A DNA stretch of 64,000 nucleotides from an uncultured Alphaproteobacteria bacterium (lineage in GTDB: Bacteria; Pseudomonadota; Alphaproteobacteria; HIMB59; GCA-002718135), in contig CABXSY010000002.1 of assembly GCA_902514875.1 (NCBI GenBank), forward strand, positions 12,083 through 76,082, written 5' to 3'. The notes beneath the pieces were generated by a model. The model saw only the letters and a program-made list of their open reading frames with translations. It was not told where the DNA came from and did not search any database. Positions 784 through 34,431 of the stretch are shown here, piece after piece; the stretch's first letter is position 1, and every line of letters begins with the position of its first letter. Position numbers and translations under genes: made by a program.

Positions 784-874
784 CTTTTCCTCCCTTTAAT
801 ATATCTTATAGAAATTATATTGATAAAAAAATCAAGATAAAAAAGCTTATTTAGCTATTAAATACAGTTGATTT

Positions 875-1702: not shown

Positions 1703-1747
1703 AATTATATTTTGAAGTAAAAATTTATTCTTTTCAAGAATAAAAGT

Positions 1748-2812
1748 CTAATTTATGACTGCTTTAAAATCACCAGTTTTATATTTAGTAGCCATTTCAC
1801 CTAAAGAAAGTGAATTTATTGAAGATGCATTGCCGGCAGTGCCAAATTCTTGCAATCTATTTTTCACAACTTCCTTCATTGCATCTTTAGAAAGTAGTAA
1901 ATATTTACGAGGATCAAACTGAGAAGGATTCTCATGAAAATATTTTCTCACTGCAGCTGTAGCTGCTAATCGAAGATCCGTATCAACATTAACTTTTCTC
2001 ACACCATGTTTAATACCTTCTTGAATTTCTGAAACAGGTACACCGTATGTTTCTTTTATTTTTCCACCATATTCATTAATAGTTTTTATTAAATCTTGAG
2101 GAACAGAAGATGATCCATGCATAACTAAATGAGTGTTTGGAAGTCTTGAATGTATTTCTTTAATTCTATCAATTGCTAAAATATCACCTGTAGGTGGTCT
2201 AGAAAATTTATAAGCTCCATGACTTGTTCCAATTGCTATAGCTAATGCATCTACATTAGTCTCCTTAACAAATTCTGATGCCTCATCTGGATCCGTTAAC
2301 AGTTGATCATGATCAAGCTTGCCTTCTGCACCAACACCGTCTTCTTTTTCTCCGGTTCCAGTTTCTAAAGAGCCTAAACATCCAATTTCACCCTCTACAG
2401 AAACTCCTAATGCATGTGCCATATCAGTAGTTTCTTTAGTAACTCTAACATTATAATCAAAATCTGAAGGTGTTTTTTGATCATCCAATAAGGAACCATC
2501 CATCATGACAGAAGTAAAACCAAGATCGATACAATTTTTACAATCTGATGGAGAGCCACCATGATCTTGATGTAAAACAGTTGGAATGTCTGAAAACTCG
2601 TTCATTGCTGCTTCAACTAATTTTTTAACAAAAATTGGTCCGGCATATTTTCTCGCAGCACCAGATGCTTGCAGAATTACAGGACTATTTAACTCTTTAG
2701 CCCCTTCCATTATTGCTCTGATTGCTTCTAAGTTATTTACATTAAATGCAGGTACACCATAATTATTTTCAGCTGCATGATCTAATAGTTGTCGAAGTGA
2801 GATTAATGACAT
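1748..2812 (-). CDS. fba: Fructose-1,6-bisphosphate aldolase, class II (CbbA/Fba long type)
   Basis: [29 protein letters not shown]..., HQDHG, and the long insertion [32 protein letters not shown] are typical of class IIb FBA. I place the start at the ATG at 2812 (homologous N-terminus); the ORF track extends 7 codons further to 2833. Confidence 0.93.
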
Positions 2813-2857
2813 ATGAAATATCTTCTTAAACATTAAAAAAATTAATTCAACAATACA

Positions 2858-3991
2858 GTGAGAGAAATTTTTAAATATTCAAATTTAATTTTTTTATATG
2901 CTTTATCTCATAGTTATCTTGCAACTTGTTTTGCAATAGATCTTAAAATTCAAGGATACGAAGAACGCTATATTGGATTATCATTATCTTTGTGGGGAAT
3001 TGGTGTAATTTTTGGAGCAATATTACATAATTTAGTTAGAAAAAGATTAAATTTATTTTCTACAATTTTATATGGTTCAATAATTCAGTTAAGTTTTTCT
3101 ATAATTTTTTTAATTGATCAAAATACTTTTCTAGTAGCTATTATGCAATTTGTCATGGGAATAACAAGTGCAATTAATTCTTTAACTTTAGAAACATACA
3201 TAAGTTCAAAATTTAGAAAATCATCCGGATTTTATATTTCATTGTTTTGGTCATCAGCAGGTTTAGGCGCAATTACTGGTAGTCTTATTATTGCTATTAA
3301 TGGAATAAATAATTTTACATATTATATTGCCGTTATATTTTTCTTTTTACACTTTATTCCAATCTTTTTATTTAGATTTTCTATAAAACAAATTAGTGTT
3401 GAGAATGTCAGTATAAAATTATCCAAAGATGTTCTAAACAAAATTAAATATTTGCTTATGTGTGTTGTTTTATTTGGTGCATGTGATGCTGGTTTTAGCT
3501 CATTATTTCCATCATATTTATTAGAAGAATCATATAGTGATAAACAAGTTGGAAGAATAAATTTTTTAGCTGGATTAATTGCTTTAGTTTTTTATCCCTT
3601 TATGGGTAAGTTAGTAGATAATTATAATAAGACTGTTATTTTTAATACTTTTTGTTCTATTAATTTTATCAATTTATTTATTCTTTATTTTATCAGTGAT
3701 TTTTATGTCTATATAATTTGTGTAGCATTTTATTATTACACTATTGGAACAGTTTTCTTAATTACATTTAATATTGTAGGTAAAAAACTTGAAGGGGGAG
3801 TAATAGTCTTTGGAATAGCTGGTCACTATATCAGTGAAAATATTGGAAGTTTCCTTGGTCCAAATTTAATTGGTAATATCATTAATATAAATATTAATTA
3901 TTTCTTCTTAATATTTGTTTTTTTGTATTTCTTAATTGTTTTACTGTTCAATTTTAATCAAATTAAGAATGGTGGGCTCTCAGGGACTTGA
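2858..3991 (+). CDS. MFS-type transporter (about 12 hydrophobic helices), substrate unknown
   Basis: 377-aa ORF from GTG. I count about 12 hydrophobic segments by eye, with a central hydrophilic loop ([23 protein letters not shown]). The last 22 nt overlap the antisense tRNA at 3970-4046. Confidence 0.65.
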
Positions 3992-4046
3992 ACCCCGGAC
4001 CACCCCGTTATGAGCGGGGCGCTCTAACCAACTGAGCTAAGAGCCC
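3970..4046 (-). tRNA. tRNA with anticodon CAT (elongator Met, or Ile2 if lysidine-modified)
   Basis: rc = GGGCTCTTAGCTCAGTTGGTTAGAGCGCCCCGCTCATAACGGGGTGGTCCGGGGTTCAAGTCCCTGAGAGCCCACCA. The hand-folded cloverleaf has acceptor GGGCTCT/AGAGCCC, D arm GCTC/GAGC, anticodon stem CCCCG/CGGGG with loop CTCATAA, and T arm CGGGG/CCCTG with loop TTCAAGT. CCA is encoded. G1-C72 is paired and there is no G29-G31 run, so it is not an initiator. Confidence 0.92.
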
Positions 4047-4087
4047 TCAAAATCCCTTATAGATGATTATAAATATTTTAATAATAT

Positions 4088-4285
4088 TTATTTTTTAGAA
4101 TTTAGCATTTTTTTTACTGAATGATAAAATTCATCAGTAACAGTAAAATAAAAGCCATTTTCTTCATGTAAAGAATTATTACCACTTCCATTTATTGTAT
4201 GAAATTCTGTGAGATGTTTAAAAAAAATATTTATGTCTGGAATGGCATATTCTCTGCCATCATCACTTTTTATTATAAAAACCAC
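4088..4285 (-). CDS. Hypothetical small protein (65 codons if GTG 4285 is the start), last gene of the ABC operon
   Basis: A GTG lies 1 nt after the TAA of the upstream ATPase gene (mRNA ...GGT GAG TAA G GTG GTT TTT...). Translation is VVFIIKSDDGREYAIPDINIFFKHLTEFHTINGSGNNSLHEENGFYFTVTDEFYHSVKKMLNSKK. I recognise no family. The 97-aa form in the ORF track would overlap the ATPase gene by 95 nt. Confidence 0.35.
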   Translation of the reverse strand: MVFIIKSDDGREYAIPDINIFFKHLTEFHTINGSGNNSLHEENGFYFTVTDEFYHSVKKMLNSKK

Positions 4286-4286
4286 C

Positions 4287-5915
4287 TTACTCACCCACAA
4301 CCTCAAATGCTGACTGGACAAGTTGTTTAGTATATTCATTAATTGGATTATCAAGAACATCTTTTGTGATTCCTTCTTCAATCACTTTGCCATCTTTCAT
4401 CACTAAAGTGTAATGACATAAGGATCTAATTACTTTTAAATTATGACTAATAAATATGTAAGATAAATTGTGATTTCTTCTTAAGGATCTTAGTAAATCT
4501 ATTATTTGTGCTTGAATCGATAAATCTAGTGCTGATGTTGGTTCATCTAATAAAATAAATTCAGGATTTAAGATTATTGCTCTAGCTATAGCTATTCTTT
4601 GTCTTTGGCCTCCGGAAAATTCATGGGGAAATCTATGTAAGACACTTTCATCTAAATTAACTTCTTGAAGAGTTTTTATAATTAAGTTATCTTTTTCTTC
4701 ACTAGATAAATCTTTTCTATTAATTTCTAAACCTTCTCCTATAATTTGCTTAACAGTATGTCTTGGATTTAATGAGGAAAAAGGATCTTGAAATACTATT
4801 TGCATGTGTTCTCTAAGTTCTTTCATTTTTTGAGTATTATAATTTTGAATTTCTTGATCCTCAAAAATAATTTTACCGGAATTAATTTCCTGAAGTTTAA
4901 TTAATGACATTCCTAAAGTACTTTTTCCTGAACCACTCTCACCAACAATACCTATTGTTTCTCCATATCGAGCTTTTATATCAACGTTATTAACCGCAAT
5001 GAGCTCAGATTTTTTTTGATTAAAAAAATTTCCTTTTTTTAAAACAAATTTAACAGTACATTTTTGACCTTCTATTATATAATCTTTGTTTTCCTCATCA
5101 AATGGGTCGGGCTCACCACTTGGCTCAGAATTAATTAGATGTTTTGTATATTCATGTTTTGGATTAGAAAATACTTCTTCTGTATACCCTCTTTCTACTA
5201 TCTTACCATAACGCATTACACAAATGCGATCACTGGTTTTACGCACAACTGTTAAATCATGAGTAATAAGCATTATTGCCATGCCGTATTTTTTTTGAAG
5301 ATTTTTTAATAATTTTAAAATTTGAGATTGTATCGTTACATCTAAAGCTGTTGTTGGTTCATCTGCAATAAGTAAATCAGGTTTATTTGCAATCGCAATC
5401 GCAATCATGATTCTTTGTCTTTGACCTCCTGATAACTGGTGTGGATATTGATTTAATCTTTCTTCGGGTTGTGGAATCTGAACCTCATTTAATAACTCTA
5501 AAGCTCTTTTTTGAGCTTGAATTTTACTTATGTTACTATGTTCACGAAGAACTTCTATAATCTGACTTCCTATCTTATGTAAAGGATTTAAACTAGTTAA
5601 GGGTTCTTGAAAAATCATAGTTATGCTATCCCCTCTGATTTGTCTCATTTGTTCATCAGTAAATTTACCTGTCTCAACTCCTTTAAAAAAAATATTAGTT
5701 TTTGTACCAACTGTAGAATTTTTTGGTAACATCTTCATGATGGTTCTAGCAGTAACAGATTTACCAGAACCTGACTCACCAACTATTGCAAGTGTCTCAC
5801 CTTTCATAATATCAAATGAAATATCGTTTACGGCGTTAACCACACCTCCTTCAACACTGAATTTAATTTCAGCATTTTTTAGATCTAAAAGTTTTGTATT
5901 ATTTTGAGACTGCAT
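4287..5915 (-). CDS. ABC transporter ATP-binding protein, fused double NBD (DppD/DppF-type, YejF/GsiA-like)
   Basis: Two Walker A motifs (GESGSGKSVTAR, GESGSGKSTLGM), two signature motifs (LSGGQRQR, FSGGQRQR) and two Walker B motifs (LLIADEPTTALD, FILLDEPTSALD). Confidence 0.93.
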   Translation of the reverse strand: MQSQNNTKLLDLKNAEIKFSVEGGVVNAVNDISFDIMKGETLAIVGESGSGKSVTARTIMKMLPKNSTVGTKTNIFFKGVETGKFTDEQMRQIRGDSITMIFQEPLTSLNPLHKIGSQIIEVLREHSNISKIQAQKRALELLNEVQIPQPEERLNQYPHQLSGGQRQRIMIAIAIANKPDLLIADEPTTALDVTIQSQILKLLKNLQKKYGMAIMLITHDLTVVRKTSDRICVMRYGKIVERGYTEEVFSNPKHEYTKHLINSEPSGEPDPFDEENKDYIIEGQKCTVKFVLKKGNFFNQKKSELIAVNNVDIKARYGETIGIVGESGSGKSTLGMSLIKLQEINSGKIIFEDQEIQNYNTQKMKELREHMQIVFQDPFSSLNPRHTVKQIIGEGLEINRKDLSSEEKDNLIIKTLQEVNLDESVLHRFPHEFSGGQRQRIAIARAIILNPEFILLDEPTSALDLSIQAQIIDLLRSLRRNHNLSYIFISHNLKVIRSLCHYTLVMKDGKVIEEGITKDVLDNPINEYTKQLVQSAFEVVGE

Positions 5916-7023
5916 ATGGATCTACCGCATCTCTTATTCCATCGCCAAAAGCGTTAAACGCTAAAACTGTAAAAATAATCATACCTACTGGAGCCATCAT
6001 CCAAGGAGCATAGGCAAAACTTTGTATATCTAAAACCTGATTTAACATAACACCCCATGAAACCATGGGATGCTGAACACCTACACCTAAAAAACTTAAA
6101 AATGTTTCAACTAAAATAATTGAAGGGATGGTAAAGGAAGTCCATACGATTACATGAGATAATGTATTTGGAAAAATATGCTGAATCATTATTCTAGATC
6201 TTGAAGCACCTAGAGCTCTAGCAGCTCTTACAAACTCTAGATTTCTTACTAAAAAAGTTTTACCCCTAATCTCTCTTGCAATTGATGCCCAGTTTAATAA
6301 TACAATTATTGCAGCAAATAAAATAAACACAACTGTTTCATCTGCTCTTCTGGGTAAAAGTGCAACTAATGCAAAATATAATGGATAAGCTGGAAAAGAA
6401 AGAGCAAATTCTGTAACTCTTTGAGCAACTAAATCATAAGTTCCTCCAAAATAACCAGAACTTATGCCTACCATTAAACCAATAATTAATGATGCACCAA
6501 CTGCAATGAGAGCAAATAATAATGTTATTTGTGTTCCAACTAACATTCGTGATAACATATCTCTTCCCATATTATCAGTTCCTAAAAGATGTATATTTCC
6601 ATCATTGTTTCCAAATAATCTAAGATTAAAATTCATTCCAAAAATTGTATATTCATCACCTTGTATAAAAAATTTTATAGGAATCATTTCTTCAGACTCA
6701 GAAAAAGTAAACTCAAAAGTTTCCATGTCCATTTCTTCAATAGTTTTATAAACAAAAGGACGAAAATGAAAGTTACCATTGTTATCAAAAAAATGTATTA
6801 GTTGGGGAGGATGGTATAATTCATCTTGAACAACTTTTTTATAATTATGTGGTGATAAAAATTCTGCAAATACTGCTAAAAATAAAATAAATATAACTCC
6901 ATAAAAACCAAACATCCCATACCTATTTTTTTTAAGTCTTAAGTAAGATAGGTGCCAATGGGAGTTAACTTTTATATAATTATCAGTCTCTGCATTTAAT
7001 GTTTGAATGTTATTACTATCCAC
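5899..7023 (-). CDS. ABC transporter permease (DppC/OppC-like)
   Basis: 374-aa polytopic membrane ORF with the EAA loop region NLEFVRAARALGASRSRIMIQHIFPN. It overlaps both flanking genes. Confidence 0.9.
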   Translation of the reverse strand: MDSNNIQTLNAETDNYIKVNSHWHLSYLRLKKNRYGMFGFYGVIFILFLAVFAEFLSPHNYKKVVQDELYHPPQLIHFFDNNGNFHFRPFVYKTIEEMDMETFEFTFSESEEMIPIKFFIQGDEYTIFGMNFNLRLFGNNDGNIHLLGTDNMGRDMLSRMLVGTQITLLFALIAVGASLIIGLMVGISSGYFGGTYDLVAQRVTEFALSFPAYPLYFALVALLPRRADETVVFILFAAIIVLLNWASIAREIRGKTFLVRNLEFVRAARALGASRSRIMIQHIFPNTLSHVIVWTSFTIPSIILVETFLSFLGVGVQHPMVSWGVMLNQVLDIQSFAYAPWMMAPVGMIIFTVLAFNAFGDGIRDAVDPYAVSK

Positions 7024-8048
7024 TATGCTGCACCTCCCGCCATATCTCTAATTCTAGGATCTAAGAGTGCTAAAAAACAATCTGCAACAAAATTACCGAT
7101 TACCAATACGAGTGATAAAATCATGAAGATTGAGGAGGCAACATATATATCCATTGAAGATACAGAACTGAGCACTAATGGACCAACTGTTGGTATTGCT
7201 AAAACAATAGCAACTTCTATTTCACCTTCTATAAGATAGGATACACTTCTACCTTGGTTCATAATGATTGGATGTAATGCATTTGGAACACCATGCTTCC
7301 AAACTATTTTACTTTCCTTTAATCCTTTTGCTCTAGCTGTTTCAATAAATTGCATTTTTAAAACATCTAATAAATTTCCCCTCATCATCCTCATTTGATA
7401 TCCAGCCCCAACAAAACTTCCAACTGCAATAATAGGCCAAGTATGTAGGAAAAAATCCCAAGTTTTAGCTAAACTCCACCAACCTTCTTGCAGTACGTAT
7501 TCCTGAGAAAATAATGATCCGTAATAAGGAGAATGAAACTTAATTGCCCAAAAATATAAAATAAAAATTGCTATTATAAATTTAGGAATGGAGAAAGCTA
7601 AGAATGTTAAGACCGTGGCAATCTGATCTCCAATTTGATATTGATGAGTAGCGGCATAAACACCAGCAAGAATGCCAATCGTTACAGCATTAAAATAACA
7701 AATAAATGCCAGCAGTAATGTCCGCGGAATCCTATCTCCAACTACATCATTTACTGGTCTTTTTTGAACAAAAGAATCTCCTAAATCCCAATATAAAGTT
7801 ACATCTTTTACCCAAGTTAAATATTGTATGTATACAGGCTTATCTAAACCTAGTTTTTTTCTTAAATCTTGAGCTTGAATTTCTGCTTCATCTTCACTTA
7901 TTCCGCCAAGCATCATTGTCTGTCTTTTCCATTGATCTGCGTAATCTCCGGGCATTGCTTGAACAAGAATGAAGGCAACAAGAGTAATTGCTATTAACAA
8001 AGGAATAGTTGCTATTAGCCTTTTTAAAAAGAAAATTAGAAAACCCAT
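7023..8048 (-). CDS. ABC transporter permease (DppB/OppB-like)
   Basis: 341-aa membrane ORF with EAA loop QFIETARAKGLKESKIVWKHGVPNAL and C-terminal LLDPRIR, typical of DppB/OppB. Confidence 0.9.
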   Translation of the reverse strand: MGFLIFFLKRLIATIPLLIAITLVAFILVQAMPGDYADQWKRQTMMLGGISEDEAEIQAQDLRKKLGLDKPVYIQYLTWVKDVTLYWDLGDSFVQKRPVNDVVGDRIPRTLLLAFICYFNAVTIGILAGVYAATHQYQIGDQIATVLTFLAFSIPKFIIAIFILYFWAIKFHSPYYGSLFSQEYVLQEGWWSLAKTWDFFLHTWPIIAVGSFVGAGYQMRMMRGNLLDVLKMQFIETARAKGLKESKIVWKHGVPNALHPIIMNQGRSVSYLIEGEIEVAIVLAIPTVGPLVLSSVSSMDIYVASSIFMILSLVLVIGNFVADCFLALLDPRIRDMAGGAA

Positions 8049-8068
8049 ATTTGAAAATTAAGTTAATT

Positions 8069-8092
8069 CTATGGCCCATTTTTGGGCCATAG
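8069..8092 (-). promoter_or_regulatory. Intercistronic stem-loop between the binding-protein and permease genes
   Basis: CTATGGCCCA-TTTT-TGGGCCATAG is a perfect 10-bp inverted repeat (6 G:C pairs) with a 4-nt loop. It lies 14 nt after the binding-protein stop and 21 nt before the permease start. On the mRNA strand no immediate U-tract follows, so it looks like an attenuator or 3'-end stabiliser rather than a full terminator. Confidence 0.6.
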
Positions 8093-8105
8093 AAAATATA
8101 TATTA

Positions 8106-10130
8106 TTAATACTCTGCTAATACACCAGGTAAGAACTCATCAAGCTGATCAGCTTTTGGAGTGTAAAGTCTAGACCTCATAACTCCATCTTCTGCCCACT
8201 CATACATATACACAGGTGCACCAGGATGATTATTTTTTATCCTTTTATTGATTAAAAGTGCAGCTGGAGCTTGAATTAAGCCCACAGTATATACATTTTC
8301 AGTTCTAACTCTCTGGATATCTCTAGCAAGACTTGCAACTTCTGAAAGATCATTAGTTGATAATATGCCTTGAGCCTTATCAACCAGTGTTTCTTCAAAT
8401 GCTAGAAGATCGCCTTCATTATCTCTATGCCAAGCAGGATTTTGAGATGTTGTTGGCAATCTATCGCCAATATTCTTAGTCGCAACAACCCAGTGCTCTC
8501 TTGCAATATACATGCTCCAATTTCCACTATCAGTGAATGCATCAGTATTATCAGAAGGTTTTAAAACTGGTTTAATACCAATTGCTTCAAACATACTCAC
8601 AGAAGCATCAGCTAATTTATTATCCGTAGATCTTAAGCTATTATAAAGAACATCAATAACAAGGTCATCTCCTCCATTAGGGAGATTTCTTATACCATTG
8701 CCGTCTGAGTCTTCTAAACCAAGACCATCCAAAATTGAATTAGCTCCAGATACATTATATGCATAGTAAATTGAGTCATCAAAATTATGAAAAGGAGAAC
8801 CAGCTACAAAACCACCAGCATGTGGATGAAAAAAAGGTCCTCTAGCAACTGATTGACCCATAGTGTCTCTATCCATTGCATGTGACATTGCTTTTCTAAA
8901 TTCCACATTTCTAAATAATTTTCTAAGCTCTCTTTCATAATCGCTACTTACACCAAATTCTGAAGATAGATTCAGCATTAAGTCCCAAGCAATCAACCTA
9001 GTACCAAATACTGATTTAACTGGAGAATTCGGATCTTTGTTTTGTTTTAACGCTTCAACATAGTTTCCTGGATTTTCCATATTAGAAAAATCTCCAGTAC
9101 CAGCCAAGGCCTGAGTAGTTCTATCATCCCAAGATGTTAACTTGTAAATAGTTTCATTATAGTATGGAAGCTGATTACATTCTTCATCTACTTTCCAGTA
9201 ATACGGGTTACGCTTCATAACCATTAATTCATCTACTTTATGAACTACTGGAACAAAAGCTCCCATTGTAACAATAGGTAAAACACTTGCTGGCATTCCA
9301 TTTGCGTATGACTCGTAAGTTGCGTCACTATTATGCGCAGGATGCAATGGTTTCATTACATGAGATGGTCCAGGAGCACCTCCCATATATGCTAACTGTG
9401 CTAATACAGCATTACCTTTTGGTTCATCAAAATTAAATTTAAATGAATATGGTCCTAGTATTTCGAGAGTTGTTCCTGATCCTAATGCATCTTTAGGTAA
9501 TCTAGAATTTACATTAGCATCTTGAACATTATCGTTCCACCAAAAATCTATGTCTTCAGTGTCGAACATATCTCCATCAGACCATCTAGCTCCCTCTAAA
9601 AGATACATCGTTAGTGATTTTCTATCAGAACTAAATTCCCAATCTTTTGCCAAGTTTGGAAGTGGATTAGCTTCTTCTGCTTTAACTTGCCATAGAGGTC
9701 CAAGTCTAGTCAATGATTCCATTAGTTGAATATTAATTCCACCCCATCCTTGACTTTGTCCTGCTAACCAGTTGAATCCTTCTGGTCTTCCACCAATAAC
9801 ATGTCGGAATGTACCACCATACTCACCAATACCATCAACCATTTGATCTTTTTTTGCCATCCAGGGCTCTTTAGGCATTCTTTCGTTTACAGGTGGTAAC
9901 TTTCCAGCATCAACATAAGATTTAGTTAGAGGAGATTCATTATAACTATCACAACTTTGATAAGTCCATAAATCATCTCTTCCCACAAGTTCAATATCCA
10001 TACCGGACATACTCTTGTCTTTAGGCAAAGTTTCTAAACCACTTGCAGTTGAAGTCATAGCAAAAATACTAACTCCAACAAGTAAGCTTGCTGCCTTGCT
10101 TTTAAATTTGAATTTATTTTCAATACCCAT
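8106..10130 (-). CDS. ABC transporter periplasmic substrate-binding protein, family 5 (peptide/opine/oligosaccharide type), unusually long (674 aa)
   Basis: Signal peptide KAASLLVGVSIFAMTSTASG. The body resembles family 5 (…LAKDWEFSSDRKSLTMYLLEGARWSDGDMFDTEDIDFWWND…, …MKRNPYYWKVD…). The strong SD is GGGAGGAAAG (rc of 10131-10140). Confidence 0.85.
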   Translation of the reverse strand: MGIENKFKFKSKAASLLVGVSIFAMTSTASGLETLPKDKSMSGMDIELVGRDDLWTYQSCDSYNESPLTKSYVDAGKLPPVNERMPKEPWMAKKDQMVDGIGEYGGTFRHVIGGRPEGFNWLAGQSQGWGGINIQLMESLTRLGPLWQVKAEEANPLPNLAKDWEFSSDRKSLTMYLLEGARWSDGDMFDTEDIDFWWNDNVQDANVNSRLPKDALGSGTTLEILGPYSFKFNFDEPKGNAVLAQLAYMGGAPGPSHVMKPLHPAHNSDATYESYANGMPASVLPIVTMGAFVPVVHKVDELMVMKRNPYYWKVDEECNQLPYYNETIYKLTSWDDRTTQALAGTGDFSNMENPGNYVEALKQNKDPNSPVKSVFGTRLIAWDLMLNLSSEFGVSSDYERELRKLFRNVEFRKAMSHAMDRDTMGQSVARGPFFHPHAGGFVAGSPFHNFDDSIYYAYNVSGANSILDGLGLEDSDGNGIRNLPNGGDDLVIDVLYNSLRSTDNKLADASVSMFEAIGIKPVLKPSDNTDAFTDSGNWSMYIAREHWVVATKNIGDRLPTTSQNPAWHRDNEGDLLAFEETLVDKAQGILSTNDLSEVASLARDIQRVRTENVYTVGLIQAPAALLINKRIKNNHPGAPVYMYEWAEDGVMRSRLYTPKADQLDEFLPGVLAEY

Positions 10131-10218
10131 CTTTCCTCCCTTAGAAAAAATATTTAGTTAAATAAAATATTTTTTTTCTACAAAATCAATATCAAAAGTA
10201 AATTATTTTTTAATAATT

Positions 10219-11748
10219 TTATGAATTTGTAGAAATATTGATAAATTGATTATGAGTAAGAGATTCCTTGATAATTTGATTAAATTTTTGAGAAAAATCA
10301 TTGTAATATTGTCTGGAACTAGACCTTAAATCATACTTTTGCATTTGTTGTCTTGCTGATTCCTTATTTAGTAGCCCAAGACCGTCTACAACTGGGTAAT
10401 AAAGCTGTGATTGTACATGAGGTAGACCAGATAAGTAATCGTCAAAGTGGTCCAAACTTGGAAGTTCATCTTGCCAAAGTGATATAAGTTTTTTTGTTTC
10501 TTCACTAATACATTCATCAGCAACATATTCCCAAAATTGTGAATCTCTTCTCTTAGAAACATAATGCATATTTAAGAAAGTTTTAAAATCATCAAACTGT
10601 CGACCAATACGATTATTAAAATCTGATATTTTATTATCATCATTGAAATCCATTTCTTTTTTTAAATATTCAGAAGCAAATAAGATTAATTGAACCAAAG
10701 TACTATGAATGGAAGTGGCCTCCAATGGTTCAAGAAAACCTGATGATAAACCGATTGCCAAACAATTTTTTACCCAATACTTTTCAAGTCGACCACTATT
10801 AAATTTTATATCTCTTCGTGGTTCAATTTTATGTCCAAGAACTTTTTCTATTTCTTCTTGTGCTTGATCAGGTGAAATAAATTGATCACTATATACATAA
10901 CCCGCACCTATTCTTTCTTGAGTTGGTATTTGCCACATCCATCCAGATTTTTGTGCCCAAGCTAAAGTATAATTAATATAATTTTCTTCATTAATATCTA
11001 GAAAGAATGGCATTGCTCTATTAACAGGTAAATTGTCTTGATAAGATTTCCATTTTGTTTTGTACTGATCTCCAATAATTAATTTCCTAAATCCACTACA
11101 ATCAACAACGAGATCAACATCTAATTCTAAACCACTTTCAAAATATAAAGATTCTATTGTTCCATCATCTCTTACATTACAAGATGTATAAACATCGTCA
11201 ATTATTTCTATATTCTGAGATCTTTTTTTTAAATAACTAGCAACTAGTGAATTATCAAAATGATACGCATAATAAAATGGACTAATAAGTTCTAAATTAT
11301 TATCTTTGTAAACATAGGGAACTTTTTTATTTTGCATAAGTAACGTATGTAGGTGAATTTCTGAAACAGGTCTCCCAGCGGCAACGGCATAAGCTTTTAA
11401 GTATTCAAAACTTTCTGGCTTACTTTTTGGTGCTATTAATTGAGGGTCATCAATTGGTCCATAATAAGTATACCCCAATTCTTTCCAGTCTTTATGAACG
11501 ATGCCAAACTTTAAAGTAGCTTTAGTTTCTTTTAAAAAATCTGTCTCATCTAAATTATATTTTTTTAAAAACTCATAAAAAATACTTGTTGTTCCTTCTC
11601 CAACACCAATTGTTGGAATTTTTGATGATTCAATTACTTTTACATTTGCATTCAATTTATTAGAGTAAAAAAAATCACTCATAATATAAGCAGCTAACCA
11701 GCCAGCAGTTCCACCGCCTAAAATAACAACATTTTTAATTTCTTTCAT
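10219..11748 (-). CDS. Flavin-dependent halogenase family protein (tryptophan-halogenase-like)
   Basis: 509 aa. It has the FAD fingerprint VVILGGGTAGWLAA, GVGEGT, a Lys in ATLKFGI (aligning by eye with the catalytic Lys of PrnA/RebH), the halogenase signature WxWxIP as GWMWQIP, and GLSSGFLEPLEATSI containing the conserved Glu. The start lies 3 nt after the GH4 stop. Confidence 0.85.
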   Translation of the reverse strand: MKEIKNVVILGGGTAGWLAAYIMSDFFYSNKLNANVKVIESSKIPTIGVGEGTTSIFYEFLKKYNLDETDFLKETKATLKFGIVHKDWKELGYTYYGPIDDPQLIAPKSKPESFEYLKAYAVAAGRPVSEIHLHTLLMQNKKVPYVYKDNNLELISPFYYAYHFDNSLVASYLKKRSQNIEIIDDVYTSCNVRDDGTIESLYFESGLELDVDLVVDCSGFRKLIIGDQYKTKWKSYQDNLPVNRAMPFFLDINEENYINYTLAWAQKSGWMWQIPTQERIGAGYVYSDQFISPDQAQEEIEKVLGHKIEPRRDIKFNSGRLEKYWVKNCLAIGLSSGFLEPLEATSIHSTLVQLILFASEYLKKEMDFNDDNKISDFNNRIGRQFDDFKTFLNMHYVSKRRDSQFWEYVADECISEETKKLISLWQDELPSLDHFDDYLSGLPHVQSQLYYPVVDGLGLLNKESARQQMQKYDLRSSSRQYYNDFSQKFNQIIKESLTHNQFINISTNS

Positions 11749-11751
11749 AAA

Positions 11752-13236
11752 TTATTTATCAAATTCAAAAGCTTGTGCTTCTACAAGCAGAGATGATTCT
11801 TTGTCATTTTTTAATTCTTCAGGTGATCTTATTTTCATTCGAGCAGCGCCTTTAAAATTTTTCTTTTTAACAGTTGATTTTTTTATTCTTTCTAATGCTT
11901 GATCCATTTCATTTTGATATTGTGGTAACCACTTAGATTGAGCTACTAACATTTCATCTACCATTGCCCAAACTTCATCAGGTGAACAAACAGCACTTAC
12001 TAGTGGATCTTGTAGAACAGCTAATTTTAAAAGATTAATATCTCCATCAATTGCGGCTTTGACAGCCATTCTTTGCACATCAATTGAAGTTCGGCATAAA
12101 GAGGCACAAGCCATTGGTAATTCTATACCCTTAATCATTTTAATACCTTCCTTATCAACCATTCCAGTACTTTCAATTACACAATCATCTGGTAAATTTT
12201 TTATAGTACCATTGTTTACAACATTAAAATGACCTCTATAAGGTCTGTTAGTTTCTATAGCTTCAATTATATAACTTCCATGCTCAGTTGATCTTTTGTG
12301 AGTTGATAAATCAATTCCAGATTCATTTAAAAATTTTGAAAAATCTTCAACAAACCAATTTCTTTTTTCTGAAGTAACTCTTAAATATCCACCTGTTTCA
12401 CCATGTATCCAATTTGATAGATCAATCCAATTTGGTATTTCTTCTACCCTCTTTCTATACCATGGAAGATATTCACTTAAATGACCATTACTTTCAGTCG
12501 AGAATAAGCCAAATCTCTTTAGAATATCAATTCTAACTTTTTCTTGTTTTGATATTTCAGGATGATTTTCTAAAGCTTCGACAAGTACATCTTTTGAGAC
12601 GTTTTTGCCTTTAAATTTTAAATCGATGTACCACGTCATATGATTAATTCCACTGCACATATATTCAAGATCAGTACCGTTATCAGAACCTAAAGCCTTA
12701 GAAATTAATTTGGCACCACCTTGAACGCCGTGGCACAAACCAACCGTATTTACTTTTGCTTCAGATATAGCTGCCCATGTGTTCATTGCCATAGGATTAG
12801 AATAATTTAAAAATAACGCATCTTTATGAGAATACGATTTTATATCTTCACAAAAATTTAAAGTTTGAGGAATATTTCTTTGTCCATATAAAATTCCTCC
12901 AGCACAAATCGTATCTCCTACACATTGATCAACTCCGTATTGAAGGGGGATATTAATATCATGTTCAAATGCTTCTAACCCACCTATTCTAGTACAATTA
13001 ATAATATATTTTGCCCCATCTAAAGATTTTTTTCTATCAGTTGATTGTTCTATGTTTGCTGGGAGCTTATTTTGATCAATATCTTTTTGAATTAAACGAG
13101 AAATTAATTCTAAATTTTTTTCTGAAATATCGTGAAATGAAAAAGTGATATCTTGAAATTCAGGAACTTTTAGCAAGTCTCTTACTAAGGTTTGTGTAAA
13201 CCCTATACTCCCTGCACCAATAAAACTAATTTTCAT
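11752..13236 (-). CDS. Glycoside hydrolase family 4 (NAD+/Mn2+-dependent glycosidase), paralogue 1
   Basis: 494 aa. It has the N-terminal Rossmann MKISFIGAGSIGF, YSNPMAMNT, the metal/catalytic motifs VGLCHGVQG and GINHMTW, and a basic C-terminal extension not present in paralogue 2. Confidence 0.88.
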   Translation of the reverse strand: MKISFIGAGSIGFTQTLVRDLLKVPEFQDITFSFHDISEKNLELISRLIQKDIDQNKLPANIEQSTDRKKSLDGAKYIINCTRIGGLEAFEHDINIPLQYGVDQCVGDTICAGGILYGQRNIPQTLNFCEDIKSYSHKDALFLNYSNPMAMNTWAAISEAKVNTVGLCHGVQGGAKLISKALGSDNGTDLEYMCSGINHMTWYIDLKFKGKNVSKDVLVEALENHPEISKQEKVRIDILKRFGLFSTESNGHLSEYLPWYRKRVEEIPNWIDLSNWIHGETGGYLRVTSEKRNWFVEDFSKFLNESGIDLSTHKRSTEHGSYIIEAIETNRPYRGHFNVVNNGTIKNLPDDCVIESTGMVDKEGIKMIKGIELPMACASLCRTSIDVQRMAVKAAIDGDINLLKLAVLQDPLVSAVCSPDEVWAMVDEMLVAQSKWLPQYQNEMDQALERIKKSTVKKKNFKGAARMKIRSPEELKNDKESSLLVEAQAFEFDK

Positions 13237-13238
13237 AT

Positions 13239-13287
13239 TTTTATTTTTATACTGAGTAAATTAATTGACAATATTTTATTTTTATAC
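13239..13287. repeat. 14-nt direct repeat TTTTATTTTTATAC (13239-13252 and 13274-13287) in the 73-bp divergent control region
   Basis: The two copies are identical when read directly from the sequence, with a start-to-start distance of 35 bp. A TTGACA hexamer (13265-13270) lies between them. The sequence is T-rich, so chance occurrence in this genome cannot be excluded. Confidence 0.45.
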
Positions 13288-13309
13288 ATCATTAAAAAAA
13301 CTATAAAAG

Positions 13310-14050
13310 ATGACAGATTTACAGAATTTTATAAAAAATGGATTTGTTCTAAAGAAAAGTCTTTTTTCTAAAGAGGAAATTGATAAGTTAATTCAATACA
13401 TCACTATTCGACAAGACAAACAGCAAATTGCTAGAGAAACTACAACTTCAACTGGTAAATTAACAATGACCATGTGGAATCATCCTTCAGAAGATTTATT
13501 TGGAAAATTCTCTACTAATGAAAGAATAGTTAAACCAATGGAAATATTCTTAAATGATGAGGTTTATCATTATCATTCTAAAATTATTTGGAAAAATCCT
13601 GGTGATGGTGGATTTGATTGGCATCAAGATTATGGTTATTGGTATCACAATGCCTGTCTTTATCCAGATATGGCATCATGTTTTATAATGTTAGATAAAG
13701 CAAATAAAGAAAATGGCTGTCTCAAAGTATTAAAAGGTTCTCATCGTGTTGGAAGAATTAGCCATGCACGATCAGATACACCCGAACAGACAGCAGATAA
13801 TGAAAGAATAAGAGAACTAGAAAAAAGACATAAGTCTGTTTATATTGAAGCAGAACCAGGAGATGCACTATTTTTTCATGCAAATCTATTGCACTCTTCC
13901 GATGCGAATAAATCACAAAATTCTAGAAGAACATTAATAGTGTGCTTTAATACTAAATCCAATAATCCTTATAAAGAAATTGGACATGCCTCTTACAACC
14001 AGTTAAAAGTGGCAAAACATAATTCAATAATGGAGTATAAAATTGACTAA
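13310..14050 (+). CDS. PhyH-family Fe(II)/2-oxoglutarate dioxygenase (canonical HxD...H)
   Basis: 246 aa with NGFVLKKSLFSKEEI, HxD in FDWHQDYGYW, CFIMLDKANKENGCLKVLKGSHR, and the distal His in FFHANLLHSSDAN. Confidence 0.88.
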   Translation: MTDLQNFIKNGFVLKKSLFSKEEIDKLIQYITIRQDKQQIARETTTSTGKLTMTMWNHPSEDLFGKFSTNERIVKPMEIFLNDEVYHYHSKIIWKNPGDGGFDWHQDYGYWYHNACLYPDMASCFIMLDKANKENGCLKVLKGSHRVGRISHARSDTPEQTADNERIRELEKRHKSVYIEAEPGDALFFHANLLHSSDANKSQNSRRTLIVCFNTKSNNPYKEIGHASYNQLKVAKHNSIMEYKID

Positions 14051-15404
14051 ACTTACAATCATTGGTGCTGGTAGCGCAGTATTTACAAAAAATATTTTTA
14101 CCGATTTAATGTTTATAGATGATTTTAAAAAAATGGACATTGCACTTGTAGATATTGATGAAAAAAGATTAAAAATTTCACATGAATTATTAGATGTAAT
14201 AGCAAAAAAATTAAATGCTTCTCCAAATATAAAATCTTATACTAATAGAAAAGAGGCGTTGGCAGATTCTGATTTTGTACAATCAACTATCCAAGTGGGA
14301 GGATACAAACCATCAACAGTAATAGATTTTGATATTCCAAATCAATTTGGGTTAAAACAGACAATTGCCGATACCCTAGGCATTGGAGGAATTATGAGAG
14401 GCCTAAGAACAATTCCCGTTTTAGTTGATATTGGTAAAGATATAATGGATCTTTGTCCAAATTCATTATGGTTGCAATATGTAAACCCAATGTGTTCAAA
14501 TATGATAGCAATAAATAATGCTTGTCCTGGAATTAATTCTATAGGACTATGTCATTCAGTGCAAGGAACTGCCGAAATGCTTGCTAGAGATTTAAATGAA
14601 AAAATTGAAGATATTGATTATCTATGTGCTGGGATTAATCATATGGCTTTTTATAAAAAGTTTACAAAAAAAAATGGCAATGGTGGAGAGGATCTTTATC
14701 CAAGATTGAAAAAATTAGCTGATGATATTGTTAGAGATAAAATAACATCTACTAGGAGTATAGGTAAGGATAGTGAGTCAGATAAAGTTCTACATGAAAA
14801 AGTAAGATATGAAATTTTAAGACGATTTGGTTATTTTGTTACAGAGTCCAGTGAACATTTTGCTGAGTATGTTCCATGGTTTATTAAACAAAACAGACAA
14901 GATTTAATTGATCAATATAAAATTCCAATTGAAGAGTATATTGATAGGTGTGAAAATAACATCAAGTTATGGGATGATTTAGAAAAAGATATGACACCTA
15001 TTCATAATGAACCTCTAAAAAGAGGAAAGGAATATGCATCATTCATTATGGATGCTGTAACAAATAATAATGAAGTAACGATTAACGGCAATGTAATGAA
15101 TGATGGATATATAGATAATTTACCATCAAATTGTTGTGTTGAAGTTCCCTGTTTAATAAATTCAAATGGTAATCAACCTCAAAAGACCGGTCGCTTACCT
15201 GAACATTTAGCAGCTTTAATGAGAACAAATATAAATGTTCAAATATTGACTGCAGAAGCGGCATTAACAAATAAAAAAGAACATATTTATCATGCTGCAA
15301 TGCTGGATCCACTTACTGGAGCAAATTTATCTATTGATGAAATATATTCTATGGTTGATAAATTAATTGATGCTCACGGTAATTACTTACCCAAATATCA
15401 TTAA
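14043..15404 (+). CDS. Glycoside hydrolase family 4 (NAD+/Mn2+-dependent glycosidase), paralogue 2
   Basis: 453 aa from TTG. It has KLTIIGAGSAVFT, YVNPMCSNM, IGLCHSVQG and GINHMAF. It overlaps the upstream PhyH gene by 8 nt. Confidence 0.88.
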   Translation: MTKLTIIGAGSAVFTKNIFTDLMFIDDFKKMDIALVDIDEKRLKISHELLDVIAKKLNASPNIKSYTNRKEALADSDFVQSTIQVGGYKPSTVIDFDIPNQFGLKQTIADTLGIGGIMRGLRTIPVLVDIGKDIMDLCPNSLWLQYVNPMCSNMIAINNACPGINSIGLCHSVQGTAEMLARDLNEKIEDIDYLCAGINHMAFYKKFTKKNGNGGEDLYPRLKKLADDIVRDKITSTRSIGKDSESDKVLHEKVRYEILRRFGYFVTESSEHFAEYVPWFIKQNRQDLIDQYKIPIEEYIDRCENNIKLWDDLEKDMTPIHNEPLKRGKEYASFIMDAVTNNNEVTINGNVMNDGYIDNLPSNCCVEVPCLINSNGNQPQKTGRLPEHLAALMRTNINVQILTAEAALTNKKEHIYHAAMLDPLTGANLSIDEIYSMVDKLIDAHGNYLPKYH

Positions 15405-16231
15405 TGTCTAAACTTACAGTTAAAGATTTATTTGACAAAAAAGGAAAAGTTAAATTAACAGAACTATATGTGACAAATGCTTTAGAAGCATATGCAGCTG
15501 AACAGGCTGGGATAGATATTCAAATTGTTTCATTCAAAAAAGATACTCTGAGAACTGGCGTACCAACAAACAAATGGTTTCGAGACGCTCATATTAAAGA
15601 TATTCGTGATGCAGCAGCAAACACTTTTATGATTTATGGCCTTGGTCAACTATCTTCACCAGAAAAAGCAATTGATGCTGCACTTATTGCAAGGGAAAAT
15701 GGTGCTGATGCAGTTTATTGCGGTAATAGTCCAAAATATATAGAAGCTCTACGAAATGAAGGTTTGCCAGCAGTCAGTCATATTGGTTTAATTCCATATA
15801 AAAGTACATGGACAGGCGGGTTCAAAGCAGTTGGGAAAGATGCACAATCTGCTTATAGGGTTTATCAAGATGCTTTAGCATATGACCAGGCGGGGGCTAT
15901 TGGTCTAGAGGTAGAATGTGTTCCTGATAGAGTTGCAGAAATAATTACAAATAAAGTTAATTCATTAACGTTATCCATGGGGAGTGGCCCTAAATGTGAT
16001 GTTGAGTTTTTATTTATACAAGATGTTATCGGAACAAATACTGATAGAGTACCTCGTCATGCTAAAGTTTTTAAGGATACAAATAAATCTTATGAAAAGC
16101 TTGTTGATGATACTGTGGAAGGACTTAAAAATTTTATTAAAGACGTAAATACTAAGAAATTTCCAAGTCCATCAAATATTGTCGAAATAAAAGATGAAGA
16201 GTTCGAAAAATTTTTAAATAAAGTTGGTTAG
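15404..16231 (+). CDS. PanB-like protein (ketopantoate hydroxymethyltransferase fold, ICL/PEP-mutase superfamily), probably not a true PanB
   Basis: 275 aa. The C-terminal half aligns by eye with E. coli PanB: SHIGLIPYK~GHLGLTPQS, LEVECVP~LVLECVP, LSMGSGP~IGIGAGN, PRHAKVF~PKFAKNF. The N-terminal metal-ligand positions differ (see findings). The start overlaps the GH4 stop (TAATG). Confidence 0.65.
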   Translation: MSKLTVKDLFDKKGKVKLTELYVTNALEAYAAEQAGIDIQIVSFKKDTLRTGVPTNKWFRDAHIKDIRDAAANTFMIYGLGQLSSPEKAIDAALIARENGADAVYCGNSPKYIEALRNEGLPAVSHIGLIPYKSTWTGGFKAVGKDAQSAYRVYQDALAYDQAGAIGLEVECVPDRVAEIITNKVNSLTLSMGSGPKCDVEFLFIQDVIGTNTDRVPRHAKVFKDTNKSYEKLVDDTVEGLKNFIKDVNTKKFPSPSNIVEIKDEEFEKFLNKVG

Positions 16232-17055
16232 ATATTTATAATTAATAAATCTTCTCCAATTATAGGATATTTACCAAAATCTCTTTTTACAATTTTCTTT
16301 AATCTTGAAGCATTAAATCTTGTTGGAACAAAGTGTGTTAATACAAGTTCTTTACAATTTGATAATTTAGCAACTTTACCAACAAGATTACTTGGAGTGT
16401 GATACTCTTTAACATTATGTAATGTTTTTTTAGTTCTAAGTTTAGACGTTTTATTCATTTCATATTCTATAAAAACCTCATGAAGTAAAACATCTGAGTT
16501 TTGAGCATTTTGCATTAAACTCTCACACGGGCGTGTATCTCCACTAATTGTTAATTTTTTATTATTATTATAAAATGAAAAACCATATGCATATGGCACT
16601 GGCTTATGATCAACTTCAAAATATTTAATTTTCATATCATTTATTTTTATTGATCCATTTTTTTTAAATTCATAAACTTTATATTTAAGAGCATTTATTG
16701 ATTTTCTTTTTTCATAAAAAATTCTTAATTCACGTTCAATTTTCCACGCTGAAAATATTTTATCAACAAATTTCTTTGTTCCTTTTGGTCCATATATTTT
16801 CCATATTGTATCTCTTTCAGAGTGCCAAGAAGAAATGATGAGTTGATACAAATCTATAACATGATCGGTGTGTAAATGAGTAAGTAGTAAAGCGTCAATA
16901 TCAGCTGAAGAGTTTTTACTTTGATTTAATCTTTGCGTTACTCCAGAACCACAATCAATTAAAATTTTAGTTTTTTTTGTAGATACAAGATTTGATGAGC
17001 CACACCTTTTGTAATCAACTGAGGGGCATCCTGTTCCTAGAAGCGTTAGCTTCAT
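16228..17055 (-). CDS. MBL-fold metallo-hydrolase (RNase Z/BN-like)
   Basis: 275 aa with [19 protein letters not shown] and the HxHxDH motif as LTHLHTDHVIDL. Its start overlaps the rpoD stop by 1 nt. Confidence 0.8.
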   Translation of the reverse strand: MKLTLLGTGCPSVDYKRCGSSNLVSTKKTKILIDCGSGVTQRLNQSKNSSADIDALLLTHLHTDHVIDLYQLIISSWHSERDTIWKIYGPKGTKKFVDKIFSAWKIERELRIFYEKRKSINALKYKVYEFKKNGSIKINDMKIKYFEVDHKPVPYAYGFSFYNNNKKLTISGDTRPCESLMQNAQNSDVLLHEVFIEYEMNKTSKLRTKKTLHNVKEYHTPSNLVGKVAKLSNCKELVLTHFVPTRFNASRLKKIVKRDFGKYPIIGEDLLIINI

Positions 17056-33469: not shown

Positions 33470-33970
33470 ATGAAGGTAAAAAAATATAATTTTACAGAAA
33501 AAGAAGTCTCTAAAGCTCTAAATATTTATAATTATTTTATTGAAAATTCATTATCTAATTTTGAAGAAAAAAAATTATCTAAATCAAAATTTAATTTATT
33601 ATTAAAAAAAATAAAAAAAAATAAGTTACCATTTATTTTTGCAATTAAAGAAAATGAAGTTATTGGATTAGCATTTGTAAATAAATTTAGAGAAAAAAGT
33701 GGATATAGATTTTCATATGAACATTCAATCTATGTAGATCCAGATTACATTAATAATGGTTATGGTAATATGATATTAAAAGAACTTGTTAAAATATGTA
33801 AAAAAATTACAAAGATTAAAAATTTAATAGCAGTGATTGGTGGAAAAAATAATTTTGCTTCTATAAAAATACATAAAAATAACGGATTTCAATATATTGG
33901 AACTATAAAAAAAGCTGGTTTTAAAAAAAATAAGTGGGTTGATTCAATTTATATGCAAAAAAGATTATGA
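33470..33970 (+). CDS. GNAT family N-acetyltransferase (phosphinothricin-acetyltransferase-like)
   Basis: 166 aa with VIGLAFVNKFREKSGYRFSYEHSIYVDPDYINNGYGNMILKEL and IKIHKNNGFQYIGT. SD is AGGAG at 33460-33464. Confidence 0.8.
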   Translation: MKVKKYNFTEKEVSKALNIYNYFIENSLSNFEEKKLSKSKFNLLLKKIKKNKLPFIFAIKENEVIGLAFVNKFREKSGYRFSYEHSIYVDPDYINNGYGNMILKELVKICKKITKIKNLIAVIGGKNNFASIKIHKNNGFQYIGTIKKAGFKKNKWVDSIYMQKRL

Positions 33971-34431
33971 AAAAAGTAAGCACTCAGAATTTTAAAAAAA
34001 CACTTAGTAAGTTTTCGACAGGAATTACTGTTGTATGTGTTAAAAATAATAATTCAATATATGGGAAAACTGTTAATTCATTTAACTCTCTGTCTCTAAA
34101 CCCTCCTATGGTTTTATTTTCTTTAGGTAATTACTCTTCTTCAATAAAACAGTTTTCAAAAACTAAATTTTTATCAATAAATATTTTATCTAGTAAGCAA
34201 AAAAAATTATCTGATAATTTTGCCTCAACCACACCTAATTTAGAAAATATAAAATTTCTTGAAGGGAAAAATAAAACAGCAATTATATCAAATTGCATAG
34301 CAAATCTTGAATGTAAACTAATAGATAAAATCAAAAAAGGCGATCACATAATGTTTATATGTAAGATATTAGAACTACAATCTAATGATAAATTGAAACC
34401 ACTTGTATATTTTAATTCAAAATATTTTTAA
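33967..34431 (+). CDS. Flavin reductase-like domain protein
   Basis: 154 aa with FKKTLSKFSTGITVVC...NSFNSLSLNPPMVLFSL, typical of the NAD(P)H-flavin reductase (HpaC-like) fold. ATGA overlap with the GNAT gene. Confidence 0.8.
   Translation: MKKVSTQNFKKTLSKFSTGITVVCVKNNNSIYGKTVNSFNSLSLNPPMVLFSLGNYSSSIKQFSKTKFLSINILSSKQKKLSDNFASTTPNLENIKFLEGKNKTAIISNCIANLECKLIDKIKKGDHIMFICKILELQSNDKLKPLVYFNSKYF

Follow-up and report, generated by a model that had tools for sequence, protein, structure and literature searches.

Flavin-dependent halogenases are understood almost wholly from their part in tailoring antibiotics and alkaloids along the biosynthetic pathways. The tryptophan 5- and 6-halogenases of group B (PyrH, AbeH, Tar14, Th-Hal, SttH) belong to actinomycete secondary-metabolite gene clusters and not to sugar-uptake operons. 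To our knowledge, there are in addition hundreds of proteobacterial "tryptophan halogenase" annotations without a known substrate. BrvH, Xcc4156 and the Pseudoalteromonas L11 enzyme ("group C") are proteobacterial orphans annotated in this way, and their group lies within nutrient-uptake loci rather than biosynthetic clusters; according to published accounts, BrvH rejects tryptophan, free indole is brominated in vitro and the native substrates of the BrvH/Xcc4156 enzymes are unknown. The agp/mel α-galactoside operon is a well-described system of another kind. The five annotated rhizobial loci that we compared (Rhizobium etli, R. leguminosarum, Sinorhizobium meliloti, Ensifer, and Phyllobacterium) are alike and run in the order AraC regulator, agaL1 (a family 4 glycoside hydrolase, GH4, of about 490 aa), agpA, two permeases, an ATPase, and agaL2 (a GH4 of about 457 aa). 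Here we describe a stretch of 64,000 nucleotides (contig CABXSY010000002.1, positions 12,083 to 76,082; hereafter the window) from an uncultured alphaproteobacterium, a SAR11-type marine bacterium, in which a gene of the flavin-dependent halogenase family (FDH) stands inside an operon of the agp/mel type (Table 1).

The open reading frame (ORF) of FDH, which had been pointed out in an earlier note on this DNA without its strand, is real, lies on the minus strand, and encodes from an ATG start a protein of 509 aa beginning MKEIKNVVILGGGTAGW. The five motifs that the same note had quoted as halogenase signatures were all present: GGGTAGW at residues 11–17, GVGEGT at 48–53, ATLKFGI with Lys80, WMWQIP at 270–275, and FLEPLEATSI at 338–347. 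In HMMER and MAFFT alignments with PyrH, AbeH, Tar14, Th-Hal, BrvH, and Xcc4156, Lys80 fell on the catalytic Lys of KLGI and Glu343 on the Glu of EPLES, while WMWQIP aligned with the GWxWxIP of PyrH, AbeH, and BrvH, so that the Lys/Glu pair and the WxWxIP motif, which divides halogenases from flavin monooxygenases, had been correctly assigned. Lys80 is equivalent to K75 of PyrH, as counted by eye along the PyrH alignment; for PrnA we take the catalytic pair to be K79 and E346, a numbering from the literature and not from a residue alignment of PrnA with FDH. In the 25 clade members compared, the identity of which goes down to about 46%, K80, E343, W270, W272, I274, and P275 were invariant, as were G11, G13, and T14–W17 of the flavin adenine dinucleotide (FAD) motif, with either G or A at position 12.

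The Pfam model PF04820 (Trp_halogenase) covered residues 6–433 of FDH with 355 bits (E 8e-106, gathering score 21), and all the matches of a PDB sequence search (30/30) were flavin-dependent halogenases, with AbeH as the best (230 bits). These scores and the residue alignments thus indicate that the motifs are not due to chance. An AlphaFold2 model built from the 25-sequence clade alignment reached a predicted local distance difference test score (pLDDT) of 90.4 and a predicted template modeling (TM) score (pTM) of 0.89. In Foldseek it matched Thal, PrnA, PyrH, RebH, BorH, Xcc4156, and others with TM scores of 0.82–0.88 at 24–29% identity, over about 520–550 aligned columns in the matches to solved halogenases, and it displayed the two-module fold with an FAD box and a C-terminal helical substrate module. 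At 509 aa the protein contains no additional reductase domain, and its fold and catalytic residues are those of the two-component type of halogenase. By sequence and predicted structure, FDH is a member of the flavin-dependent halogenase family with the full catalytic apparatus.

Purifying selection on the gene is strong among SAR11 (ratio of nonsynonymous to synonymous substitution rates, dN/dS, 0.03–0.05). The closest homologues were found in SAR11/Pelagibacteraceae (64–94% identity), followed by Devosia, Pelagibacterium, and Rhizobiaceae at about 46–53%, and an exact copy of the protein is encoded on a 124-kb NCBI contig. Clusters of the clade at 90% identity gathered 448 and 443 members, the former, to which the window protein belongs, including Tara Oceans sequences.

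Comparison with the rhizobial loci showed that the window locus consists of the known parts of an agp/mel α-galactoside operon plus one extra gene. The gene set and the sizes are shared (GH4 of about 490 aa, solute-binding protein, SBP, of about 680 aa, GH4 of about 455 aa, two permeases, and a fused ATPase), but the window locus has a halogenase gene and the canonical rhizobial loci have none (0/5). Both GH4 proteins of the window exceeded the cut-off of the NCBIfam alpha-galactosidase model PRK15076 (486 bits): GH4a, with 552 bits, grouped with the rhizobial agaL1 and GH4b, with 593 bits, grouped with agaL2, the split between the a and b types being recovered in 200/200 bootstraps. The SBP matched the Agrobacterium periplasmic α-galactoside-binding protein MelB over its full length (PDB 6epy, E 7e-167, 560 bits) and was 41–43% identical to annotated rhizobial AgpA; we accordingly classify the importer, by sequence, as a putative AgpA/MelB-type α-galactoside system and not as a generic or peptide type. 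The SAR11 version differs from the rhizobial operon in that no AraC regulator is found nearby and GH4b stands on a divergent transcript, together with a PhyH gene and a PanB-like gene. The start of FDH had been placed 3 nt after the GH4 stop, and the gap is exactly that: the TAA of GH4a at 11752–11754 is followed by TTT and then by the FDH ATG at 11748. The gap between FDH and the SBP gene measures 88 nt, is AT-rich, and ends in AAGGGAGGAAAG, with a strong Shine-Dalgarno sequence.

To see how general this arrangement is, we scanned for homologues, keeping one genome per species, and obtained 80 loci, which fell sharply into two sets, one at 40% identity or more to the window protein and the other at 36% or less. 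The first set comprised 25 loci, and every one of them that is named to class belongs to the Alphaproteobacteria (SAR11 single-cell genomes, Hyphomicrobiales, and many Rhodobacterales). The other 55 came from Gammaproteobacteria, Caulobacterales, Sphingomonadales, Burkholderiales, and one Streptomyces. With two loci added by exact-protein look-up and one on a plasmid, 28 loci of the clade were available. In tblastn searches, parts of the module directly adjoined the FDH gene in all 28 of them and in none of the 55 out-of-clade loci. The coupling to a GH4 and an ABC (ATP-binding cassette) importer that the earlier note had read from a single locus thus held throughout the clade, each locus having GH4 and/or ABC genes beside FDH. 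On very short contigs, the C-terminus of GH4b (L012) or of the ATPase (L023) could still be recognized just upstream of FDH, and a b-type GH4 was matched in each clade locus that matched any full-length GH4. In high-GC loci, spurious antisense ORFs (clusters c8, c10, and c15) were disregarded and the tblastn evidence was used. Two long-read metagenome-assembled genomes (MAGs) from "MFD" bins, L024 and L028, carried the whole set with FDH and all its partners broken into several frames, which reflects either assembly indel errors or true decay of the whole module.

The order of the genes varied among lineages, and FDH always stayed inside the unit. In Aestuariivirga, a Hyphomicrobiales MAG, and Sulfitobacter, the order was GH4b-FDH-GH4a, placed after the ABC genes at their 3′ end, and the gaps ran from −4 to +10 nt (4-nt overlaps in Sulfitobacter; −1 to +10 nt in other loci of the clade). 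Devosia had GH4a-FDH convergent with GH4b and the ABC genes, and five Rhodobacterales had GH4b-FDH only. The order GH4a-FDH-SBP was shared by the window and two SAR11 genomes, and in two other SAR11 genomes FDH followed the ATPase gene with a 1-nt overlap. The plasmid locus, on the 136-kb NZ_CP081110.1 of Sulfitobacter mediterraneus (2177–16568), contained eight genes (AraC regulator, SBP, permease, permease, ATPase, GH4, halogenase, and GH4) flanked by IS6 and IS3 transposase genes, and this bracketing suggests that the module moves as a unit. The carriers are largely aquatic or alga-associated, e.g., Devosia rhodophyticola, Sulfitobacter, and Marivivens. In its clade, FDH is a fixed accessory gene of an agp/mel uptake and hydrolysis operon with one or two GH4.

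Phylogenetic analysis, which had been suggested as a check on the family assignment, placed the protein in a separate clade within the halogenases. In a neighbor-joining tree of 140 sequences, 38 core sequences of the clade grouped together in 200/200 bootstraps, and the sole outsiders that ever joined them were the frameshifted copy of L028 and the nearest outgroup, L027. Kimura distances from the window protein were at most 1.09 for other sequences inside the clade, and amounted to 1.40 for Tar14, 1.45 for AbeH, 1.47 for Th-Hal, 1.54 for PyrH, 1.64 for BrvH, 1.75 for the L11 enzyme, and 1.81 for Xcc4156. PrnA and RebH (group A) were compared by bit score and Foldseek only, not in the tree; with 190 and 171 bits, respectively, they scored below the group B enzymes (205–230 bits). 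We thus assign FDH to a distinct alphaproteobacterial clade present in SAR11, Hyphomicrobiales, and Rhodobacterales. We found no characterized or solved member of this clade in the PDB and the literature searched, family-wide profiling studies aside. L027, from Salinarimonas sp. NSM (9986–11545), is 32% identical to the window protein, and neither GH4 nor Agp ABC genes lie within 10 kb of it; its surroundings might show the role of the lineage before it joined the α-galactoside operon.

Group B enzymes are the closest to FDH among the described halogenases, with the best PDB scores, the smallest distances outside the clade, the full-length fold (TM 0.86–0.88), and identical catalytic motifs. 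They differ in overall sequence (about 28% identity) and in the segments that contact tryptophan, HPFE being replaced by GPIDD, the QxxQ of Trp3 being absent, and the YYH of Trp4 being lost in FDH. The enzymes of the BrvH/Xcc4156 group also share the catalytic motifs, and like the FDH clade they lie in uptake loci, but they form a separate lineage. They stand beside TonB-dependent receptors, lack GH4 and Agp ABC genes (0/55), and have no Trp4-type lid segment, which the FDH clade keeps. The earlier note had mentioned that uncharacterized "tryptophan halogenases" recur next to TonB-dependent receptors. Such genes do exist (seven of nine sampled large ORFs beside out-of-clade halogenases were TonB-dependent receptors, and an eighth was a GH3), but they belong with BrvH and Xcc4156, and FDH is not among them. 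We considered and rejected membership of FDH in this group on account of the low identity (at most 36%), the separate split in the tree, and the bit scores: FDH reached 199 bits with BrvH (6frl) and 187 bits with Xcc4156 (6y1w), whereas an out-of-clade, TonB-linked Caulobacter protein reached 531 and 521 bits. Neither a TonB-receptor-sized ORF nor an FDH paralogue was seen at the window locus or in the gene maps drawn for the clade. Several out-of-clade loci (Paraglaciecola aquimarina L047, L031, L041, L042, and others, several with TonB-dependent receptors) carried 2–6 halogenase paralogues within 20 kb, often in tandem, while the halogenase of the GH4-linked clade was always single copy, without tandem expansion.

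The substrate of FDH can be approached through the motifs defined in tryptophan halogenases. In the Trp2 motif HxF, the H (95% conserved) and the F (98%) stack on the ring of indole, and the Trp3 QxxQ binds the carboxylate in group B (PMC8269204). In FDH, Trp2 HPF(E/G) has become G97-P-I99-D-D, a change invariant across the clade, and QxxQ is missing at the Trp3 position, which reads LISP in the window protein and p-x-gP in the clade consensus. Further replacements that belong to this invariant, clade-specific signature are KxGIrH for KLGIRF, LPVNRAMPF for LPNDSAVAL, and EATSIHG for ESTGIFF. The C-terminal lid is kept, the group B motif (Y/H)YHG(L/F)(P/E)PYS being partly matched by ...YLSGLPHVQS...; of the Trp4 segment DYLSGLPHVQS, only G-L-P is common to both, and the lid of the clade reads ...LxGLPHvExQLYYPV.... 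Retention of the lid, unlike in BrvH-type enzymes, argues for a defined and enclosed small-molecule site, which would be lined by the clade-invariant polar residues D100, D101, N243, R244, H444, and Q448. Loss of both the indole-stacking residues and QxxQ makes free tryptophan unlikely as a substrate, and FDH probably does not act on it, in agreement with the earlier note. The annotation in the source databases is "tryptophan 7-halogenase" or tryptophan halogenase family; with the tryptophan-contact segments lost, the label "tryptophan 7-halogenase" is very probably wrong about the substrate.

The reading that we prefer, and to which we give about an even chance of being right, is that FDH is a working halogenase using FADH2, O2, and halide, and that its non-tryptophan substrate enters with α-galactosides or is freed from them. 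Free FADH2 from an unlinked general flavin reductase would bind FDH and react with O2 to a flavin hydroperoxide, which would oxidize halide (seawater bromide or chloride) to hypohalous acid. The WxWxIP wall would hold the organic substrate off the flavin, and the hypohalous acid would move to Lys80 and Glu343, which would deliver X+ to an electron-rich carbon. The substrate, held by the C-terminal lid and by polar residues in place of the aromatic indole clamp, would most plausibly be polar, i.e., a glycoside or aglycone imported with, or released from, α-galactosides; the replacement of the clamp by clade-invariant polar residues itself argues that it is not tryptophan. The flavin reductase named in the earlier note indeed belongs to Flavin_Reduct (PF01613). 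It is unlinked to the locus, with a GNAT acetyltransferase on one side and an M23 peptidase on the other, and is a candidate supplier of FADH2 in trans.

Several observations weigh against this preferred reading. None of the 28 clade loci contained a flavin reductase, as judged by homology to the PF01613 protein of the window and by recurrent clusters of small ORFs; many two-component halogenases rely on a general cellular reductase. The pocket residues were assigned by alignment to motifs defined in other enzymes. Melibiose, raffinose, galactinol, and floridoside offer no electron-rich sp2 carbon to halogenate. The canonical agp/mel operons function without FDH, rhizobia using α-galactosides in its absence, and the partner proteins of the halogenase-bearing operons are no more diverged than taxonomy predicts: distances between canonical and halogenase-linked proteins matched those within the halogenase-linked set, with 0.57 against 0.58 for the SBP, 0.32 against 0.28 for GH4a, and 0.42 against 0.40 for the ATPase. 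We thus rejected the possibility that the halogenase-linked SBP, GH4, and ATPase form a diverged subfamily with a special substrate; the importer and GH4a look like ordinary AgpA and AgaL1 orthologues, and nothing in the partners hints at a special substrate. FDH is therefore unlikely to be obligatory for splitting ordinary α-galactosides, and its gene is a conserved accessory of the operon rather than a core catabolic step. The carbohydrate-derived or aglycone substrate proposed in the earlier note has to stay a proposal, since canonical operons lack FDH and the partners are undiverged.

The undiverged partners and the canonical operons that work without FDH fit the view that FDH is co-regulated with the operon without being linked to its pathway, the operon serving as a cue that a host or alga is near and FDH brominating or chlorinating a small aromatic compound, for instance an indole or phenol signal, made by the cell itself or by the host, and acting on nothing that the importer carries. 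The mostly aquatic or alga-associated carriers agree with it, and so does the in vitro bromination of free indole reported for the related BrvH and Xcc4156, whose native substrates are not known. Yet FDH is embedded among structural genes, its start and stop codons overlapping with theirs, its linkage in 28/28 loci over three orders, despite repeated shuffling of gene order, exceeds what shared regulation needs, the aromatic residues that hold indole are lost, and a streamlined SAR11 genome would be an unlikely home for a signaling luxury; we consider this explanation unlikely, though worth keeping in mind. It is also rather improbable, in our view, that the halogenase scaffold serves another net reaction, in which hypohalous-acid or flavin-hydroperoxide chemistry would oxidize or decarboxylate an aglycone or sugar-derived intermediate, or halogenate it cryptically with subsequent elimination, leaving no stable organohalogen. 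Other flavin-dependent halogenases, e.g., Bmp5, are known for cryptic or decarboxylative halogenation, and the catabolic context with its O2-dependent tailoring enzymes (PhyH in SAR11 and in two Rhodobacterales loci) and the polar, clade-specific pocket signature would suit such chemistry, but the conserved Lys80, Glu343, and WxWxIP are equally expected under ordinary halogenation.

A role as modifier of a protein or peptide, in the manner of MibH or the LodB maturases, with a partner such as GH4 as the target, seems very doubtful. The position of FDH between two GH4 genes, the translational coupling, and a weak N-terminal match to the NCBIfam LodB maturase model speak for it, the match being confined to the FAD-binding region (33 bits, cut-off 400); however, the type of the neighboring GH4 is not fixed, FDH follows the ATPase gene in some SAR11 loci, the same GH4 types work in rhizobia without FDH, and the lid appears closed and highly conserved, as for a small-molecule site. 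We find it hardest to credit that FDH is a true tryptophan halogenase or a hitch-hiking, decaying gene without function. The source annotations and the best PDB matches, which are tryptophan 5- and 6-halogenases, would favor the former, but the residues for indole stacking and carboxylate binding are absent and the 7-halogenases PrnA and RebH are weaker matches still; the latter is contradicted by the low dN/dS, the invariant catalytic residues, and the unbroken linkage.

In the literature searched, we found no paper that connects halogenases with operons for α-galactosidase or with the metabolism of SAR11. The automatic annotation as tryptophan halogenase family and the agp/mel operon are already known, whereas the separate clade, its strict embedding in the α-galactoside operon in three orders including SAR11, and the loss of the tryptophan clamp appear to be undescribed in that literature. 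Two independent recruitments of halogenases into nutrient-uptake loci, one with GH4/Agp and the other with TonB-dependent sugar receptors, suggest a physiological role outside secondary metabolism. At its boldest, a suggestion that we regard as more probably wrong than right by a wide measure, the clade would be the first flavin-dependent halogenase in primary carbon catabolism rather than secondary metabolism, and would carry out a step that needs halide, with a stable or a cryptic outcome, on a glycoside taken up by the cell or on its aglycone. Growth on algal α-galactosides would then lead SAR11, and further Alphaproteobacteria abundant in water, to produce organohalogens or to use them in passing, and, together with the independently recruited TonB-linked BrvH/Xcc lineage, halogenases would have a general and so far unrecognized role in bacterial glycan or glycoside use. 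The strict tie to a well-understood and experimentally tractable operon makes the question of what FDH acts on a testable one, and the clade occurs in culturable Devosia, Sulfitobacter, and Rhodobacter as well as in SAR11. If FDH halogenates in vivo, its abundance (more than 400 metagenomic members per cluster) would make it relevant to marine organic bromine and chlorine chemistry; if it does not, FDH would be a halogenase scaffold put to a reaction of a new type.

Table 1. Positions of FDH, its operon partners, and other features of the window.
Feature	Position	Strand	Remarks
Flavin-dependent halogenase-family protein (FDH), GH4/ABC-linked alphaproteobacterial clade	10219..11748	-	509 aa
FDH key residues			G11xG13xxG16W17, G48VGE51, K80, W270xW272xI274P275, E340PLE343
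FDH clade signature			Y95xGPIDDP102, L240PVNRAxPF248, L442PH444
GH4a, family 4 glycoside hydrolase, MelA/AgaL1 type	11752..13236	-	494 aa; Pfam PF02056 + PF11975
SBP, AgpA/MelB α-galactoside type	8106..10130	-	674 aa; SBP_bac_5; strong Shine-Dalgarno sequence upstream
Perfect 12-bp palindromic hairpin	8067..8094		TTCTATGGCCCA-TTTT-TGGGCCATAGAA; in the 57-nt gap between SBP and permease genes
ABC permease, OppB/DppB type	7023..8048	-	Pfam BPD_transp_1 + BPD_transp_1_N; kept in clade loci
ABC permease, OppC/DppC type	5899..7023	-	Pfam OppC_N + BPD_transp_1; kept in clade loci
Fused double ABC ATPase	4287..5915	-	542 aa; two ABC_tran + oligo_HPY
PhyH-family Fe(II)/2-oxoglutarate oxygenase	13310..14050	+	H105-x-D107...H195 triad; 8-nt overlap with GH4b start
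GH4b, second family 4 glycoside hydrolase, AgaL2 type	14043..15404	+ (divergent)	453 aa; NCBIfam PRK15076
PanB-like protein (ketopantoate hydroxymethyltransferase fold)	15404..16231	+	directly after GH4b; Pfam PF02548, 134 bits
Flavin_Reduct PF01613 protein	33967..34431	+	between GNAT acetyltransferase and M23 peptidase

Among the neighboring genes, homologues of the fused ATPase in the non-SAR11 loci of the clade were 53–58% identical to that of the window. The PhyH gene next to GH4b and the PanB-like gene were found in SAR11 loci only, among the clade loci, and the latter scored far below true PanB with the NCBIfam PanB models (117 bits, cut-off 272). We examined the adjacent PhyH as a possible Fe(II)/2-oxoglutarate halogenase and rejected it, since its HxD triad is of the hydroxylase type. 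More SAR11-specific genes surround the module, namely a second PhyH (875–1702), a class II aldolase (1748–2833), and a transporter of the major facilitator superfamily (2858–3991). Together, these SAR11 additions (13310–16231 on the plus strand and 875–3991) suggest a larger island for sugar or aglycone processing beside rpoD and dnaG. Homologues of the second PhyH, with 58% identity, occurred in two Rhodobacterales halogenase loci from Paracoccaceae/Rhodobacteraceae MAGs (L014 and L022), in the latter between the ATPase and GH4b genes. The presence of PhyH in SAR11 and in these two loci indicates that an Fe(II)/2-oxoglutarate oxygenase was recruited to the module in more than one lineage, and gives no more than a hint that some substrates have a non-sugar moiety needing oxidative processing.

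In this AT-rich DNA, a promoter scan returned 56 matches, fewer than the 64 in shuffled sequence, and so says nothing about promoters here. The GC content of the window ranged from 25 to 32%, with 31–32% in the sugar island (1–16000) against 25–28% at 32000–64000; this mild difference could reflect an acquired island or merely coding constraints. The hairpin between the SBP and permease genes is probably an intra-operon attenuator or an mRNA stabilizer that would raise expression of the SBP over that of the membrane components.

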